Shown here piece by piece: positions 44,237-49,356 of a stretch of 64,000 nucleotides of DNA. Source of the DNA: a bacterium. GTDB taxonomy: Bacteria > Zhuqueibacterota > Zhuqueibacteria > Residuimicrobiales > Krinioviventaceae. The notes under the pieces were generated by a model. It searched no databases. It saw nothing but the letters and a program-made list of their open reading frames with translations, and was not told the DNA's origin. The number at the start of each line of letters is the position of its first letter. Position 1 is the stretch's first letter. The stretch lies in contig CAXXFV010000023.1 of assembly GCA_963674595.2 (NCBI GenBank), positions 736,001-800,000 on the forward strand, given 5' to 3'. The translations under genes were made by a program, and so were the position numbers.

Positions 44237-44803
44237 GTGCAAATCCGAAAATTTTTAATGATTACTCTTTTCCTGTTACTGGCTTCCTGCGGCCGAAGCA
44301 TTGAAAAACAGGCCCGGGACCAGGTAAGGAAGCTCAGCAACGCAGACCTGGAGAAAAAACAGGTATCAGTGTTCAATGTCAGCCAGATGGGTGACACCGC
44401 GACAGCGGAAATAGATATCCATACAGCTGTAAAAATGAGCAAAGAAGATGGCAAGTGGCTGATTAAAGAAATTCGCCTGGGCAGTGAGAAATGGGAAGAC
44501 GTCCACAGAATAGTCGGGGCGATTGAACAGATAAGAGCAGAAGATACCATGGCTGACATGAAAACAATAAGAGATGCGGTTGAAGCATACAGTAAAGAAA
44601 AAGGCCCCCTGGAACTTGAAATAAATTTTGTAACCTTGATTGATCTTTTGGCTCCCGAATATCTGCCTAATCCAATCCGAGAAGACGCGTGGGACAATCC
44701 GTTCACCCTGCTGGTGACAAAAGAAGGCTTTCAGATCAGATCCGCCGGACCGGACGGAAAATCTGGAAGCAGAGATGACCTGGTATTAAACAATGAAAAT
44801 TAA
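44237..44803 (+). CDS. Lipoprotein with a C-terminal type II secretion GspG-like domain
   Basis: Lipobox LASC; DAWDNPF...IRSAGPDGKSGSRDD resembles the GspG C-terminus. Confidence 0.6.
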   Translation: MQIRKFLMITLFLLLASCGRSIEKQARDQVRKLSNADLEKKQVSVFNVSQMGDTATAEIDIHTAVKMSKEDGKWLIKEIRLGSEKWEDVHRIVGAIEQIRAEDTMADMKTIRDAVEAYSKEKGPLELEINFVTLIDLLAPEYLPNPIREDAWDNPFTLLVTKEGFQIRSAGPDGKSGSRDDLVLNNEN

Positions 44804-45659
44804 AGAAAAATATACATATTTTTATGCCGTTGCAGTTATCCTGCTGGCTCTCATCGGCGCCTCCTGTGCAGGCGGAGATACTGCGACAGGTGAATCAATT
44901 AACTGGCAGCCTGATGTTTACGCGGCTTTTAAAACAGCTGCCCAGGAAAACAAAGACGTACTGCTGTACCTCAATGCTGACTGGTGCGGTTACTGCCGGA
45001 AACTGGAAGCGGAAACTTTCACGGATGCCAAGGTAATAAAAGAACTGGGCGATGCCTTTGTCTGGGTCAAACTGGATGGGGATAAAGATCCGGACGGAAA
45101 CCGCTATAAAAACAAGTTTAATGTCCGTGGTTACCCCGCGATGTTCATCCTTGATCCAGAAGAAAACGAGCTTGACCGTATATCCGGATATCTCCCTCCC
45201 GAGAATTTCCTGGAGATGATGATTTCCATGCGCGACGGCAACACTTTTGCCGGGCTTCAGGAGAGAGTTAAAGAGAATCCGGATGACATGAAAGCCAAAC
45301 AAAAACTTGCTGAAAAACTGCTTTTCAGAGGCCAGCCGGGAGATTCCCTGAAAAACCTGGAGATGGTACTTAAAGCTGATCCTGATAACGAACAAGGACA
45401 GATGGAACCGGCCTTGTATTTAATGGCCCAGGCGACTTATGCCATGCGCCAGTATCAGCCGACTCTCGCTGTCCTGGATAAATACGAAGAAAAATTTCCG
45501 GATGGCACACATATTGCCGATTTCATGTTGCTCAGGGCCCAGTTAAACCTTGAAAATAATGAGAGCGAATCCGCCCGGTCCACGCTGGAAAAATTCCTCA
45601 AAGCATATCCCCATCATCCCAAGGCTGAACTTGTGAGACGCCACCTGTCCGAAAATTAG
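44793..45659 (+). CDS. Thioredoxin-family lipoprotein with C-terminal TPRs
   Basis: Lipobox GASC, ADWCGYC, VRGYP cis-Pro, TPR-like tail. Confidence 0.8.
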   Translation: MKIKEKYTYFYAVAVILLALIGASCAGGDTATGESINWQPDVYAAFKTAAQENKDVLLYLNADWCGYCRKLEAETFTDAKVIKELGDAFVWVKLDGDKDPDGNRYKNKFNVRGYPAMFILDPEENELDRISGYLPPENFLEMMISMRDGNTFAGLQERVKENPDDMKAKQKLAEKLLFRGQPGDSLKNLEMVLKADPDNEQGQMEPALYLMAQATYAMRQYQPTLAVLDKYEEKFPDGTHIADFMLLRAQLNLENNESESARSTLEKFLKAYPHHPKAELVRRHLSEN

Positions 45660-45682
45660 CCGAAACAAGGGAGACCTGAATA

Positions 45683-45800
45683 GTTGCGAGTAGCAGGTTG
45701 CGGGTTGCTAAGTAATCGGGTGAGGCTATCGTAGTTTACCAAACAATTGGGGTGGGAAAAATCAATCCCGATTCCGAGCCCGACCCCAACCCCGATGCCG
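45683..45800. repeat. GTTGCGG-type heptamers plus CCCGAT-type hexamers
   Basis: GTTGCGA GTAGCAG GTTGCGG GTTGCTA at 45683-45710; ccccgattccgagcccgaccccaaccccgatgccga at ~45766-45800. Confidence 0.6.
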
Positions 45801-45896
45801 AGCATAAATTGAGGATCCGCAAACGTCGCACTTTCCAATTGAACTCAAAAAATGTCAAAGTATGAATGACGAATTTCGAACAATTACGCACTTCGA

Positions 45897-46092
45897 TGCA
45901 GTCAAGACATCGGTAACACTAATCATTCAGGACATAGGTAACAGTCCGTTTATGCCCCTTCACCCGGGCGGCAACAACTAACGCCGGAGGCGTTTAAGTT
46001 TCCCCGGAAACAGTAGGTGGCGGCGTGTGCATTTTCAACTGCAATGGGTATTACCTATGTCCTGAGCAAAAGTGTTACCTATGTCCTGAACA
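45897..46092. mobile_element. Non-autonomous MITE-like element with doubled terminal inverted repeats (IS481/IS21-like ends)
   Basis: Left gtcaagacatcggtaacact and ttcaggacataggtaacagt; right ttacctatgtcctga twice, ending ...tgaaca; no ORF inside. Confidence 0.7.
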
Positions 46093-46115
46093 CGCGCCCT
46101 TAACAATTGCCTGAT

Positions 46116-46736
46116 TCAGATCAGGTGCCCCATTCTTTCCCTTTTAGTATCCAGGTATCTGCTGCTGTGCTCCGAGGGCTCAATTATTAGAGGAACCCTT
46201 TCCGTCACATCTATTCCCTCTTTCTTCATGCCTTCCAGTTTGCGAGGGTTATTAGTAAGCATCCGGATTCCCTTCACCTCAAAATACCTTAGAATCTCAG
46301 CGCAGAATGCGTACTGCCGCTCATCAGACCTGAAACCCAGTTTATGATTGGCATCAATCGTATCAAGGCCCTCATCCTGGAGGGCATATGCCCTGAGTTT
46401 ATTAAGCAGCCCGATGCCCCTTCCCTCCTGCATCTGATAGATCAAAATTCCTTCATCGCTCTTTCCAATAGCCTCCAGTGATGCATCCAGCTGCTTTCCG
46501 CAGTCACAACGCAGGGAGTGGAGCGTATCACCTGTGAAGCACTTCGAATGAATCCGGGCAAGCACATTTCTGCCCTTGAGTTCACCGGACACCAGGGCTA
46601 CCGCCTCCTCATCACTTTGCGTGTCCTTGAATCCGTATATGGTAAAACTTCCGAACGAGGTGGGGAAACAAGCCTTGACGACCTGTTCCGGGTCTATACA
46701 AGGCCGATCACTGCTTAATTCTTTCTGATTACTCAT
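46116..46736 (-). CDS. ribA: GTP cyclohydrolase II
   Basis: RIHSKCFTGDTLHSLRCDCGKQL, QEGRGIGL, LTNNPRK, MGHL; start estimated at MSNQKE. Confidence 0.94.
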   Translation of the reverse strand: MSNQKELSSDRPCIDPEQVVKACFPTSFGSFTIYGFKDTQSDEEAVALVSGELKGRNVLARIHSKCFTGDTLHSLRCDCGKQLDASLEAIGKSDEGILIYQMQEGRGIGLLNKLRAYALQDEGLDTIDANHKLGFRSDERQYAFCAEILRYFEVKGIRMLTNNPRKLEGMKKEGIDVTERVPLIIEPSEHSSRYLDTKRERMGHLI

Positions 46737-46998
46737 TTTTGGAATTATACCAAAATCGCCGCTATTGAATCGCTTTCGGAACAGGGTCTCTACCGGAAAA
46801 GACAAACAAAAAAATATTCTTACAATCCCGATTAGATTTTTACATTAACTAAGAAAATCTTTTACCAACCGCTCAATATAAATTAATTTCTTGTTTATAT
46901 TTTCAGCCTGTGCTAATACAATAGGAAAATCTGTTGTGGAGAATTAATTGAAATTTTTCATTAAAATAATTTAATTATCTGGGAGAGGATTAAGAACC

Positions 46999-47427
46999 AT
47001 GGAAGAAAACAATATACCCACCCCGCCAGGAACGCCACCCGAAACACCACCTCAAACTCCTCCTGTAAATACACCTCCTCCACCAGGAGGCGGCGCAGGA
47101 TATGTATCTCCGAACCGTACTATTATGCTCATACTGGCCTATCTCAGCGTTCTGGCGCTGATTCCGCTTCTTACCGAAAAGGAAGACAAGGAAATTCAGT
47201 GGCATTCCAAGAATGGTTTGGTAATCACAGCAGCCTGGATAATCCTTGCTATTGCCTTAACGATCCTGGGTTTTATTCCCATTGTTGGACAGGTTCTTGG
47301 TTGTTTGGCCATGCCGTTTATAGGCCTTGGCGGGTTGATAGTATTTATTTTATGTATCGTCAAAGCCCTCAACGGAGAACGTTTCCGCCTTCCCATGGTT
47401 TCTGACTATGCAGATAAATGGCAGTAG
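46999..47427 (+). CDS. DUF4870-like membrane protein with Pro-rich N-terminus
   Basis: ILAYL, IQWHSKNGL, CIVKALNGERFRLP; GGGAGAGG RBS. Confidence 0.75.
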   Translation: MEENNIPTPPGTPPETPPQTPPVNTPPPPGGGAGYVSPNRTIMLILAYLSVLALIPLLTEKEDKEIQWHSKNGLVITAAWIILAIALTILGFIPIVGQVLGCLAMPFIGLGGLIVFILCIVKALNGERFRLPMVSDYADKWQ

Positions 47428-47451
47428 ACTGACTGACTCGAAATGAACAGA

Positions 47452-47489
47452 CAGGGGGTAACCAGATGTTAATCCTGATTATCCCCCTG
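47452..47489 (+). terminator. Hairpin downstream of the DUF4870-like gene
   Basis: cagggggtaa...ttatccccctg inverted repeat; no U-tract. Confidence 0.35.
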
Positions 47490-47523
47490 GACCCAGCCCG
47501 CAATCCCTTCCATCGGGCCTGAA

Positions 47524-47913
47524 ATGAACATCAGAGAGATGCTCAAAACCAATAAAAAAGCCCGTATCCTACTCGTGGGCTCAGCCCTTTTCCTGCTGCT
47601 GGCCGGATTAACTGCAACTGATATACCGCTGCGTTACGAAATCAGGCTGATCCATTTTTACAAGTCTCATGTTTCCCCCGTTTCCAGTCATTTTGTGACT
47701 TGCCGATTCAGTCCTACCTGATCCAGCTATGCCCTCCTGGTCCTGGAGGCTGACGGATTTTGGCTGGGGAATCTGAAAATCACCGGCCGGCTGCTCAGGT
47801 GTTCAGCCTTCGGATTCGTGTGGGACGCCTTGTTTTCAGAAAAACAGAAGGAACAAAAGCAAACCGGGATTAGCTGTTTATTATTCAGGGAATTTTCACA
47901 CCGGCTATCATAA
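47524..47913 (+). CDS. yidD: YidD-family (membrane protein insertion efficiency factor) protein with an in-frame TGA at a conserved Cys; candidate selenoprotein, 129 aa if read through
   Basis: IHFYKSHVSP...CRFSPT-TGA-SSYALLVLEADGFWLGNLKITGRLLRCSAF matches YidD CRFxPTCSxYA...G...G...R..RC; frame open to TAA 47911-47913. Confidence 0.8.
47722..47757 (+). promoter_or_regulatory. Candidate bacterial SECIS element
   Basis: TCC-AGC-tatgcc-CTCC-TGGTCCT-GGAG-GCT-gac-GGA hairpin starting right after the TGA; loop 16 nt from the TGA, containing GGT. Confidence 0.55.
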
Positions 47914-48057
47914 TGTCTAAATCCATATCACTTGCATCCACAACAATTAATGGACCGTCCCCTTTTAACTACCCGGCAAGGGCTTTCTTCCCGGCACCTT
48001 GCCCTGTAGACTGAATATTCGCGTGTGTTGACTATCAGGCAGTTTACTGCAAATATT

Positions 48058-49356
48058 ATGGACATGGTTTGGTACAAAAAACTGCACTGGCAGATTATTA
48101 TCGGGCTGGTTCTCGGACTGATATACGGGGCATTGGCAGCATCCATCGGCCTGCAGAAATTCACTGCCGACTGGATTGCTCCTTTTGGCACAATATTCAT
48201 AAATCTCCTCAAACTGATTGCGGTTCCCCTGGTACTTGCTTCCCTGATATGCGGAGTTGCTTCCCTTTCCGATCTAAAAAAACTCTCAAGAATCGGGGGA
48301 AAAACAATCCTCATATACATGGCCACCACTGTTATTTCAGTTTCTATCGGGCTGACACTGGTGAATATTCTCAAACCAGGACACTATGTCCCACCGGAGA
48401 TGCGGGAGCAGCTGCAGCAAACCTACGAAAAAGATGCCGCCAGCCAGACTGACCTGGCCAGGCAGGCCAGGGAGAGAGGCCCGCTGCAGCCCCTGGTCGA
48501 TATTGTTCCCTCCAACCTTTTTGATTCCGCTTCTGATAACAGGAACATGCTGCAGATTGTGTTCATCGCGCTGCTGGCGGGGATTGCCCTGATCCAACTG
48601 GAAGACAGTCAAAGCAGGCCTTTACTTGAATTTTTCAGTTCCCTTAACGAAGTCATTATCAGGATTGTTGACATAATAATGCTGATGGCTCCGCTGGGGG
48701 TATTCGCCCTCATATCAGGAACCATCACTTCCATTGCCGAAGAAAACATCATGCAGGTGGTCAACCTGCTCGGGGCCCTCGGGTACTATTGCTTCGCGGT
48801 TGTTCTCGGATTGATGATCCAGGGATACGTAACCTATTCAATTATGCTCAAGCTCTTTACCCCTATGCCGCTGGGACGCTTTTTCAAGGGGATAGCCCCG
48901 GTTCAGCTGGTGGCATTCTCAACCAGTTCCAGCGGGGCCACCCTTCCGGTCACCATGGAAAAATGCCAGGATGAACTGGGAGTTTCAGACGAAATATCCT
49001 CTTTTGTGCTTCCCCTGGGAGCGACCATCAACATGGACGGTACCGCTCTTTACCAGGCTGTGGCCGCAGTTTTTATTGCCCAGGCCCTGGGTATGGAACT
49101 TTCTCTCTCAGCCCAGCTGGTAATCATCCTGACAGCTGTACTGGCCTCCATAGGAACAGCAGCCGTGCCCAGTGCGGGAATTATAATGCTGGTTATAATC
49201 CTGGAAGCCATTGGCGTTCCCAGCGCGGGGATTGCCCTGATCCTGGGAGTGGACCGTATCCTGGATATGCTGAGAACTGTAACCAACGTGACCGGGGACA
49301 GCTGTGTTGCCGTGCTTATAGCCTCATCAGAAGGACAGCTGGACCAGGAGGATTAA
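48058..49356 (+). CDS. Dicarboxylate/amino acid:cation symporter (GltP/DAACS)
   Basis: AFSTSSSGATLP, LPLGATINMDGT, SIGTAAVP, VDRILDMLRTVTNVTGD. Confidence 0.92.
   Translation: MDMVWYKKLHWQIIIGLVLGLIYGALAASIGLQKFTADWIAPFGTIFINLLKLIAVPLVLASLICGVASLSDLKKLSRIGGKTILIYMATTVISVSIGLTLVNILKPGHYVPPEMREQLQQTYEKDAASQTDLARQARERGPLQPLVDIVPSNLFDSASDNRNMLQIVFIALLAGIALIQLEDSQSRPLLEFFSSLNEVIIRIVDIIMLMAPLGVFALISGTITSIAEENIMQVVNLLGALGYYCFAVVLGLMIQGYVTYSIMLKLFTPMPLGRFFKGIAPVQLVAFSTSSSGATLPVTMEKCQDELGVSDEISSFVLPLGATINMDGTALYQAVAAVFIAQALGMELSLSAQLVIILTAVLASIGTAAVPSAGIIMLVIILEAIGVPSAGIALILGVDRILDMLRTVTNVTGDSCVAVLIASSEGQLDQED

Follow-up and report, generated by a model that had tools for sequence, protein, structure and literature searches.

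A YidD-like membrane protein gene with an in-frame UGA predicted to encode selenocysteine, paired with a Tic20-like HOTT gene

In this work we examined a 64,000-nucleotide stretch of a bacterial genome (contig CAXXFV010000023.1 of assembly GCA_963674595.2, positions 736,001 to 800,000; the whole stretch is called the window below) and, within it, a short gene of the YidD family that is interrupted by one in-frame TGA. Its sequence makes it very probable that the product is a YidD-like protein anchored in the membrane, 129 residues long (about 105 in its relatives), with a predicted selenocysteine (Sec) at residue 66. Taken as a whole, we are confident that the locus is best explained as a Sec-containing, membrane-anchored YidD-like selenoprotein whose decoding is directed by a selenocysteine insertion sequence (SECIS), together with the putative function set out further below. 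In the proposed mechanism, SelB and a Sec-tRNA(UCA) would decode UGA66 as Sec under the direction of a small stem-loop, which begins at the UGA itself and exposes an apical loop containing GGU 16 nt further on; of the three invariant cysteines (C60-x5-U66 ... C93), Sec would take the place of the middle one. The features of the gene are as follows.

47524 to 47913, plus strand: full, putatively Sec-containing YidD-like open reading frame (ORF), 129 codons including one UGA, with TAA at 47911 to 47913
47563 to 47616, plus strand: N-terminal hydrophobic helix (approximately residues 14 to 31), a membrane anchor or signal-like segment preceded by residues rich in Lys and Arg (AlphaFold2 helix 11 to 31; hydrophobic 17-mer)
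47701 to 47703, plus strand: codon of Cys60, the first invariant Cys (C-x5-U)
47719 to 47721, plus strand: UGA predicted to be read as Sec, residue 66, in the second invariant Cys column of the family
47800 to 47802, plus strand: codon of Cys93, the third invariant Cys

Under translation table 11 the gene appears as a 65-codon ORF that runs from the ATG at 47524 to ...VTCRFSPT and the TGA at 47719 to 47721; beyond the TGA the same frame stays open as SSYALLVLEADGFWLGNLKITGRLLRCSAF. This bears out the initial annotation of the locus, which had described a called 65-residue ORF ending in CRFSPT-TGA and a frame running on to the TAA at 47913. The read-through protein (P0001; Sec was entered as Cys for the programs used) matches the Pfam YidD family PF01809 with 58.2 bits (cut-off 27) over residues 40 to 96, a match that spans the TGA, and TIGR00278 with 54.6 bits (cut-off 40). 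Together with the invariant Cys column described next, these matches across the TGA substantiate the earlier suggestion that this is a YidD family member with TGA on the second conserved cysteine.

A search of 1.84 billion representative proteins returned 532 matches at E <= 1e-3, the best of which define a subfamily of approximately 95 to 155 residues with an N-terminal hydrophobic helix and the signature ...SPxxxxxxxCRFxP[T/S]CSxYALxxLxxxGFWxGNxxIxxRLxxCSPxG. In our alignment A1 (29 rows, 27 of them database homologues), the TGA column (66) holds Cys in 27 of the 27 database homologues, and the residues that are invariant throughout comprise Y46, S51, C60, R61, C66, S67, L74, G78, G82, N83, R89, L90, C93, S94 and G97; all 28 full-length homologues carry CS directly after CRFxP[T/S]. 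At the nucleotide level, the codon at this column is TGT or TGC in 16 Cys-type loci (counting L058 and L145 as the one locus that they are). The Cys form also occurs within the same close clade as the window protein: P0156, a 105-residue JGI protein with Cys at the column, aligns gap-free with P0001 over 105 residues at 66% identity (E 3e-52).

The TGA itself recurs in independent sequence. Two metagenome contigs, L056 and L057, encode proteins 72 to 73% identical to that of the window, with TGA at the same codon, followed by SSYALQVLEADGFWKGN and the same neighboring genes, and the related genome G328 (locus L139) encodes a protein 91% identical, again with TGA at the same codon. The earlier question of whether relatives carry TGA while others carry TGT or TGC at this column is thus answered by the presence of both kinds, and the TGA is not unique to this genome. 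Nine database proteins (P0152, P0153, P0002, P0154, which is the protein of L056, P0155, P0157, P0158, P0035 and P0068) are 42 to 95% identical to the N-terminal part of the window protein, and all nine end with zero residues after CRFxPT. These truncated calls come from NCBI, ENA, JGI and Logan; that is, the gene callers of all four cut the gene at this column. A maximum-likelihood tree built from the N-terminal parts (38 rows, 61 columns) joins P0156 in one group with the ten rows that are of the Sec type or truncated; P0156 is nested inside this group, whose support of 92/92 is a rough figure as the bootstrap had not settled. The Sec/Cys label changes 2 times on this tree versus a mean of 9.1 for shuffled labels, and this distribution fits one switch from Cys to Sec followed by one reversal.

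As for G328, it is also 74 to 90% identical at the nucleotide level to another part of the window. More precisely, it is 74 to 98% identical to the window at L139 (G328:C1:24618-28001) and at an 8-kb stretch (G328:C2:1604362-1612848). G328 is assigned to the large phylum of G167 and not to the 167-genome phylum of the window genome (G000), which may reflect an inconsistency in taxonomy or binning. Among 401 sampled genomes of G167's phylum, the subfamily was found in 18 at E <= 1e-11, with the Sec form in 1 (G328); in the other 17 the column is free of a stop (13 by inspection of the loci, 4 as judged from a summary table). Two candidates with an apparent internal TGA were rejected: that in G003 is the stop of an upstream rnpA-like ORF and not a Sec codon, and that in G202 is the normal stop of the gene itself. 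A scan of contigs with a single protein as query gave no match, and the main pattern of a second contig scan, made with alignment A2, held PTCS, so that it could find Cys forms alone and says nothing on how rare the Sec form is.

One alternative is that the true codon is TGC or TGT and that the TGA arose from an error in sequencing or assembly. Several contigs of sequencing run X1 and one of run X4, which comes from a different study, span 47719 to 47721, and among the differences listed for them none falls at these positions; both differences listed for the X4 contig are synonymous in the read-through frame. Since TGA also stands in three other loci, we give an error virtually no credence. 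The concern over an artefact voiced in the initial annotation is likewise answered by the contigs of X1 and X4, with no listed difference at the TGA, and by L056, L057 and L139, which keep it. X1 additionally contains a co-occurring relative that is approximately 80% identical (63 differences in 325 nt); among its listed differences none lies at 47698 to 47753, which covers CRFSPT-TGA and the downstream hairpin, and those listed further downstream comprise 9 synonymous and 2 conservative codon changes. Over window positions 47400 to 48100, X1 holds at least two co-occurring relatives beside the window-identical form, namely the contig of approximately 80% identity and a short variant with 7 differences, which suggests population diversity that keeps the TGA.

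The sequence beyond the TGA behaves as coding sequence. We calculated the ratio of non-synonymous to synonymous substitution rates (dN/dS) by the Nei-Gojobori method over the 37 codons after the TGA, with the following results.

Window versus L056: dN/dS downstream 0.127, dS downstream 1.14, dN/dS upstream 0.162
Window versus L057: dN/dS downstream 0.109, dS downstream 1.33, dN/dS upstream 0.149
Window versus G328: dN/dS downstream 0.061 (12 synonymous and 3 non-synonymous differences), dS downstream 0.58, dN/dS upstream 0.113

Differences by codon position number 7/5/15, so third positions dominate, and the other two frames after the TGA hold stops. The frame after the TGA is translated and under strong purifying selection, as far as sequence comparison can tell; relaxed selection on the downstream residues, which the initial annotation had named as an outcome that would speak against Sec, is the opposite of what was found (dN/dS 0.06 to 0.13). 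There is no in-frame ATG, GTG or TTG between the TGA and residue 99, and because of this the second half cannot be made separately. Residues 106 to 129 (24 codons, window positions 47839 to 47913) form a lineage-specific tail common only to G328. The genes of L056, L057 and P0156 lack this tail and end near residue 105, and positions 47838 to 48026 are skipped in the X1 relative. The last 24 codons are a recent C-terminal extension.

These data also bear on the possibility that the gene is a pseudogene, in which a TGY-to-TGA nonsense mutation struck a second YidD-like copy whose downstream part is now decaying. Cys codons are one step from TGA, the genome holds a functional canonical yidD elsewhere, and no orthologue was found among the 166 other genomes of the phylum to which G000 is assigned (nor among 60 relatives, a sparse distribution that counts to some extent against a functional selenoprotein as well). 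Set against this, the same TGA is present in lineages 55 to 95% identical, downstream dN/dS is 0.06 to 0.13 at dS values of up to 1.3, there are neither frameshifts nor extra stops, and nucleotide conservation is highest just after the TGA. We consider decay very improbable.

The window genome (6.6 Mb, 37 contigs, 38.8% GC) is equipped to insert Sec. As the initial annotation had proposed to check, selA, selB, selD and tRNA-Sec are all four present: selA (574 bits), selB (354 bits) and selD (389 bits) score over their curated cut-offs, and the tRNA-Sec scores 65.9 bits with the Rfam model and is called by ARAGORN as tRNA-SeC with anticodon tca. The selD gene is itself of the Sec type with its own in-frame TGA (L018 around 1531; G000:C4:13220), and two other genes each carry one TGA at a known Sec site, a peroxiredoxin-like (Prx) gene (...FTFV-U; G000:C4:224638-225033, minus strand) and an Rdx/SelW-like gene (CAV-U; G000:C3:255399-255602, plus strand). 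The formate dehydrogenase alpha homologue of the genome (L138) has no TGA and hence was of no use as a SECIS control. TGA terminates 507 of 2707 long ATG-initiated ORFs, so the code is standard, with no general reassignment of TGA. Sec and Cys hosts cannot be told apart by the machinery, since tRNA-Sec was found in 5 of 5 genomes tested, four of which host the Cys form. In addition, 5 of 14 control genomes scored above the gathering cut-off of the Rfam tRNA-Sec model, and a match to this model on its own is no proof of Sec use; some of those control genomes are not known to use Sec.

Directly at the TGA lies a hairpin with the geometry of a bacterial SECIS (bSECIS).

47720 to 47759, plus strand: bacterial SECIS-like stem-loop, in which the lower stem pairs 47720 to 47724 with 47755 to 47759, the upper stem pairs 47731 to 47737 with 47745 to 47750, and the loop UGGUCCU occupies 47738 to 47744

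Counting the U of the UGA as nt 1, the upper stem consists of nt 13 to 15 and 17 to 19 paired with nt 27 to 32, the loop of nt 20 to 26, and the lower stem of nt 2 to 6 paired with nt 37 to 41. The apical loop UGGUCCU (7 nt) has G at its second and third bases and begins 16 nt past the UGA; the pairing, the loop start and the G at the second loop base had been described accurately in the initial annotation. Published bSECIS criteria (PMC13188914) give an apical loop of 3 to 9 nt, an upper stem of 4 to 16 bp, a G in the first two loop positions (mostly G[G|U]), a spacing of 16 to 37 nt from the UGA and a minimum free energy (MFE) of <= -7.5 kcal/mol. The window hairpin conforms to all of these, with an upper stem of 5 to 6 bp, a spacing of 16 nt and an MFE of -12.3 kcal/mol. 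Those of L056 and L057 have the loop AGGUUCU and two further possible pairs (MFE -16.5 and -14.2 kcal/mol), and all 12 pairs are retained when the four Sec-type sequences are folded to a consensus. The hairpin apices also resemble those of two Sec genes of the same genome, Prx (UCAGC-AGUU-GCUGA) and Rdx (CUGCC-AGGUU-GGCAG). Nucleotide comparison of the window with L056 shows the highest identity over the TGA and hairpin (0.87 to 0.90, compared with 0.53 to 0.67 upstream), and of 110 Cys-type sites in YidD or YidD-like genes only 2 have such a hairpin.

As a null model for stability we took the z score of the native 45-nt fold against 3000 synonymous recodings, which replaced a dinucleotide shuffle that is uninformative for a short SECIS.

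Window: z -2.05; 98 of 3000 recodings as stable
L056: z -3.68; 3 of 3000 as stable
L057: z -2.80; 18 of 3000 as stable
selD (genuine control): z -1.90; 126 of 3000 as stable
Rdx (genuine control): z -1.36; 307 of 3000 as stable
Prx (genuine control): z -0.28; 1135 of 3000 as stable
Canonical yidD (negative control): z -0.14; 1242 of 3000 as stable

Several observations weigh against Sec decoding, and most of them concern this hairpin. Its spacing of 16 nt sits at the lower limit of the published range. Among the 12 pairs there are 0 compensatory ones, with a single one-sided change (C-G to U-G), in a comparison of four similar sequences. Against dinucleotide shuffles the hairpin gives z = -0.03, with 82 of 200 shuffles folding equally well. 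Our own hairpin criteria are passed by 3299 of 50124 TGA sites in the genome (about 6.6%), and by 2716 of 40858 TGY sites (6.6%), and the genuine selD SECIS fails them. Of the synonymous recodings, 24% pass for the window peptide (12025 of 50000) and 13% for L056; so many do so because the codons of A-L-x-V-L-E are nearly self-complementary. An excess of unchanged synonymous codons over the hairpin was not significant (Fisher p = 0.10). Rfam gave no match at the hairpin site, a null that is uninformative because Rfam likewise found no SECIS family at the genuine selD SECIS. A SECIS-like hairpin with a 7-bp stem and a GUC loop also follows straight after the TGT of L058 (2672 to 2730), a Cys-type locus from an Acidobacteriota metagenome-assembled genome; it may be left over from a Sec ancestor, or represent a prior palindrome in the codons of A-L-Q-V-L-Q that might ease switches from Cys to Sec. 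Apart from the hairpin, the stop codon is known to be TGA for only 1 of the 9 truncated proteins (the other 8 are available as protein only), and no RNA runs are listed for the locus. Thus the fit to bSECIS geometry that had been anticipated stands, in that all published criteria agree and the fold is more stable than recodings, and the covariation that had been proposed as a further check is lacking. We regard the SECIS as moderately supported: consistent, but not decisive on its own. The position of the TGA, taken together with its conservation, goes far past what chance would give.

The same evidence leaves some room for the view that the UGA is a real or leaky stop, read on occasion by a near-cognate Trp or Cys tRNA, so that the 65-residue fragment is the main product and the full-length protein arises by infrequent, Sec-independent read-through. 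Moderate SECIS evidence without covariation, and a hairpin whose presence is explained in part by the peptide sequence, are what such a view would predict. It is difficult to reconcile, however, with downstream purifying selection as strong as that upstream, which means that the full-length product matters, or with the lack of any in-frame start before residue 99 from which a separate downstream product could be made. Moreover, the UGA stands in place of an invariant Cys, to which Sec is chemically equivalent; the genome has a complete Sec system and other Sec genes; and the native RNA is stable relative to its recodings to a degree at or beyond that of the genuine SECIS controls. On balance, a stop or leaky stop seems to us improbable, and we favor decoding of the UGA as Sec.

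If so, this is apparently an uncatalogued selenoprotein family, a conclusion that is well supported as far as sequence evidence goes. YidD, PF01809 and TIGR00278 have no entry among the 119 families and subfamilies in Table 1 of a 2026 review (PMC13188914), to which the present finding would add a family. Nor are YidD, the haemolytic domain, DUF37 or COG0759 mentioned in the main texts of PMC12013277, PMC9312934, PMC2398784 and PMC1976440, whose supplements could list a YidD-like candidate. Full-text literature searches combining YidD, membrane protein insertion efficiency or DUF37 with selenium terms yielded nothing relevant on a YidD selenoprotein, and NCBIfam release 20.0 contains no Sec-specific model for this protein. 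The initial annotation had likewise not known YidD as an established selenoprotein family, and no such listing appeared in the literature searched. With the computationally defined bacterial selenoprotein families catalogued as Sec/Cys pairs in PMC13188914 (among them Prx-like, SelW-like and DsbA-like), the window subfamily shares a UGA aligned with Cys, a bSECIS directly downstream, a Sec-using host, and a sporadic, clade-restricted Sec form with reversal to Cys. Unlike them, it has the motif C-x5-U rather than the common CxxU or UxxC, and a predicted fold that is all-helical and membrane anchored rather than thioredoxin-like.

YidD is nearly universal in bacteria, yet what it does biochemically and what its three invariant cysteines are for is unclear. 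In other families, natural replacement of Cys by Sec mostly marks redox-active or catalytic residues, and the Sec form accordingly provides a concrete, testable hypothesis for the YidD cysteines; it hints that they are chemically active. The AlphaFold2 model of the read-through protein (mean predicted local distance difference test score 84) is all-helical, with helices at residues 11 to 31, 34 to 49, 51 to 54, 66 to 93 and 95 to 128. The loop of residues 55 to 65 carries C60, and helix 66 to 93 begins at the predicted Sec. A crude count of Lys and Arg around the N-terminal helix (5 before, 2 after) suggests that the N terminus lies inside and the domain outside.

C60 and U66 may form a redox-active selenylsulfide or thiol-selenol center at the start of the helix. 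This center may act with the partner encoded directly upstream, a membrane protein of the DUF4870 family (also known as HOTT, see below), in the biogenesis or handling of membrane or exported proteins, with a recurrent thioredoxin-like neighbor as a possible reductant. We propose a redox role because most selenoproteins carry redox motifs (PMC13188914), and also on the basis of the modelled position of residue 66 at a helix N terminus and the recurring thioredoxin-like gene. Redox chemistry by C60 and U66 is, in our estimate, somewhat better than an even prospect; the main alternative, metal binding by the Cys/Sec triad, appears a good deal less probable, though well worth bearing in mind. Two observations count against the functional proposal: among solved structures, neither a Protein Data Bank (PDB) sequence search nor Foldseek against the PDB gave a meaningful match, and the thioredoxin-like neighbor is present at just 8 of 18 loci. 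A broader and decidedly tentative possibility is that YidD-family cysteines in general constitute a catalytic thiol/selenol redox center rather than a structural element, that the HOTT and membrane-anchored YidD-like pair is an unrecognized two-component module for the biogenesis of membrane or exported proteins, and that the active Cys was upgraded to Sec in one clade.

The window gene is not the canonical yidD of its genome. Two YidD matches were found there, one on contig C4 (101.6 bits, no stop) and that of the window (50.7 bits, one TGA). The C4 copy is flanked by the Ribonuclease_P (rnpA) and YidC genes, and a location between rnpA and yidC is typical of canonical YidD; because the window gene lies outside such an arrangement, whereas the C4 copy lies inside it, we take the former to be a YidD-like paralogue. 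It is a paralogue of the rnpA-yidD-yidC gene and belongs to a distinct subfamily that is nearly always found directly downstream of a DUF4870/HOTT gene; the initial annotation had mentioned neither this membrane-anchored paralogy nor the pairing. With canonical YidD (PF01809/TIGR00278) the window protein has in common an above-cut-off domain match, its small size, the three Cys positions and the CRFxPTCSxYA signature. It differs in the predicted Sec at the second Cys, in an extra N-terminal hydrophobic helix, and in a Pfam match that ends at model position 59 of 67, whereas that of the canonical copy reaches 67. Its identity to the canonical YidD of the same genome is only 32%, and its gene lies downstream of DUF4870 instead of in the rnpA-yidC operon.

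In the window the gene order is a thioredoxin-like (CGYC) and TPR (tetratricopeptide repeat) protein gene, ribA (minus strand), DUF4870, the YidD-like gene, an SDF transporter and a sulfatase. Two of these neighbors are relevant here.

44793 to 45659, plus strand: gene for a thioredoxin-like (CGYC) and TPR protein (Pfam Thioredoxin_2, 63 bits, and TPR families)
46999 to 47427, plus strand: gene for a DUF4870 (HOTT, Tic20-like) membrane protein (Pfam, 33.4 bits versus a gathering score of 25, residues 50 to 134)

The gene immediately before the YidD-like one is a DUF4870 homologue at 17 (the window, L056, L058, which equals L145, L060, L139 to L144 and L146 to L152) of the 18 distinct loci that have an upstream flank; L059 is without DUF4870 upstream, and L057 has no flank. 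At L060 the DUF4870 and YidD-like ORFs overlap by 17 nt. DUF4870 has been renamed HOTT (Homologs Of Tic Twenty) and placed in a superfamily with the Tic20 translocase, being otherwise uncharacterized (PMC11628618). The upstream partner in the window matches this family, which, along with MamF-like proteins of the Tic20 superfamily, is tied to Tic20 protein translocases and organelle protein assembly (PMC11628618). The main text of that paper does not contain the terms YidD or YidC, and the pairing is known here from gene adjacency alone. It links two poorly understood families, each of which is connected with the handling of membrane proteins.

Near the two-gene module, thioredoxin-like/TPR genes recur at the 8 of 18 loci already mentioned, and ribA and SDF at 6 of 18 each. 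The neighborhood of thioredoxin-like/TPR, ribA, DUF4870 and YidD-like genes (window positions 44793 to 47427) recurs in distant lineages, at L058, L140 to L142, L148, L150 and L152, and this recurrence of the wider neighborhood suggests more than a two-gene module.

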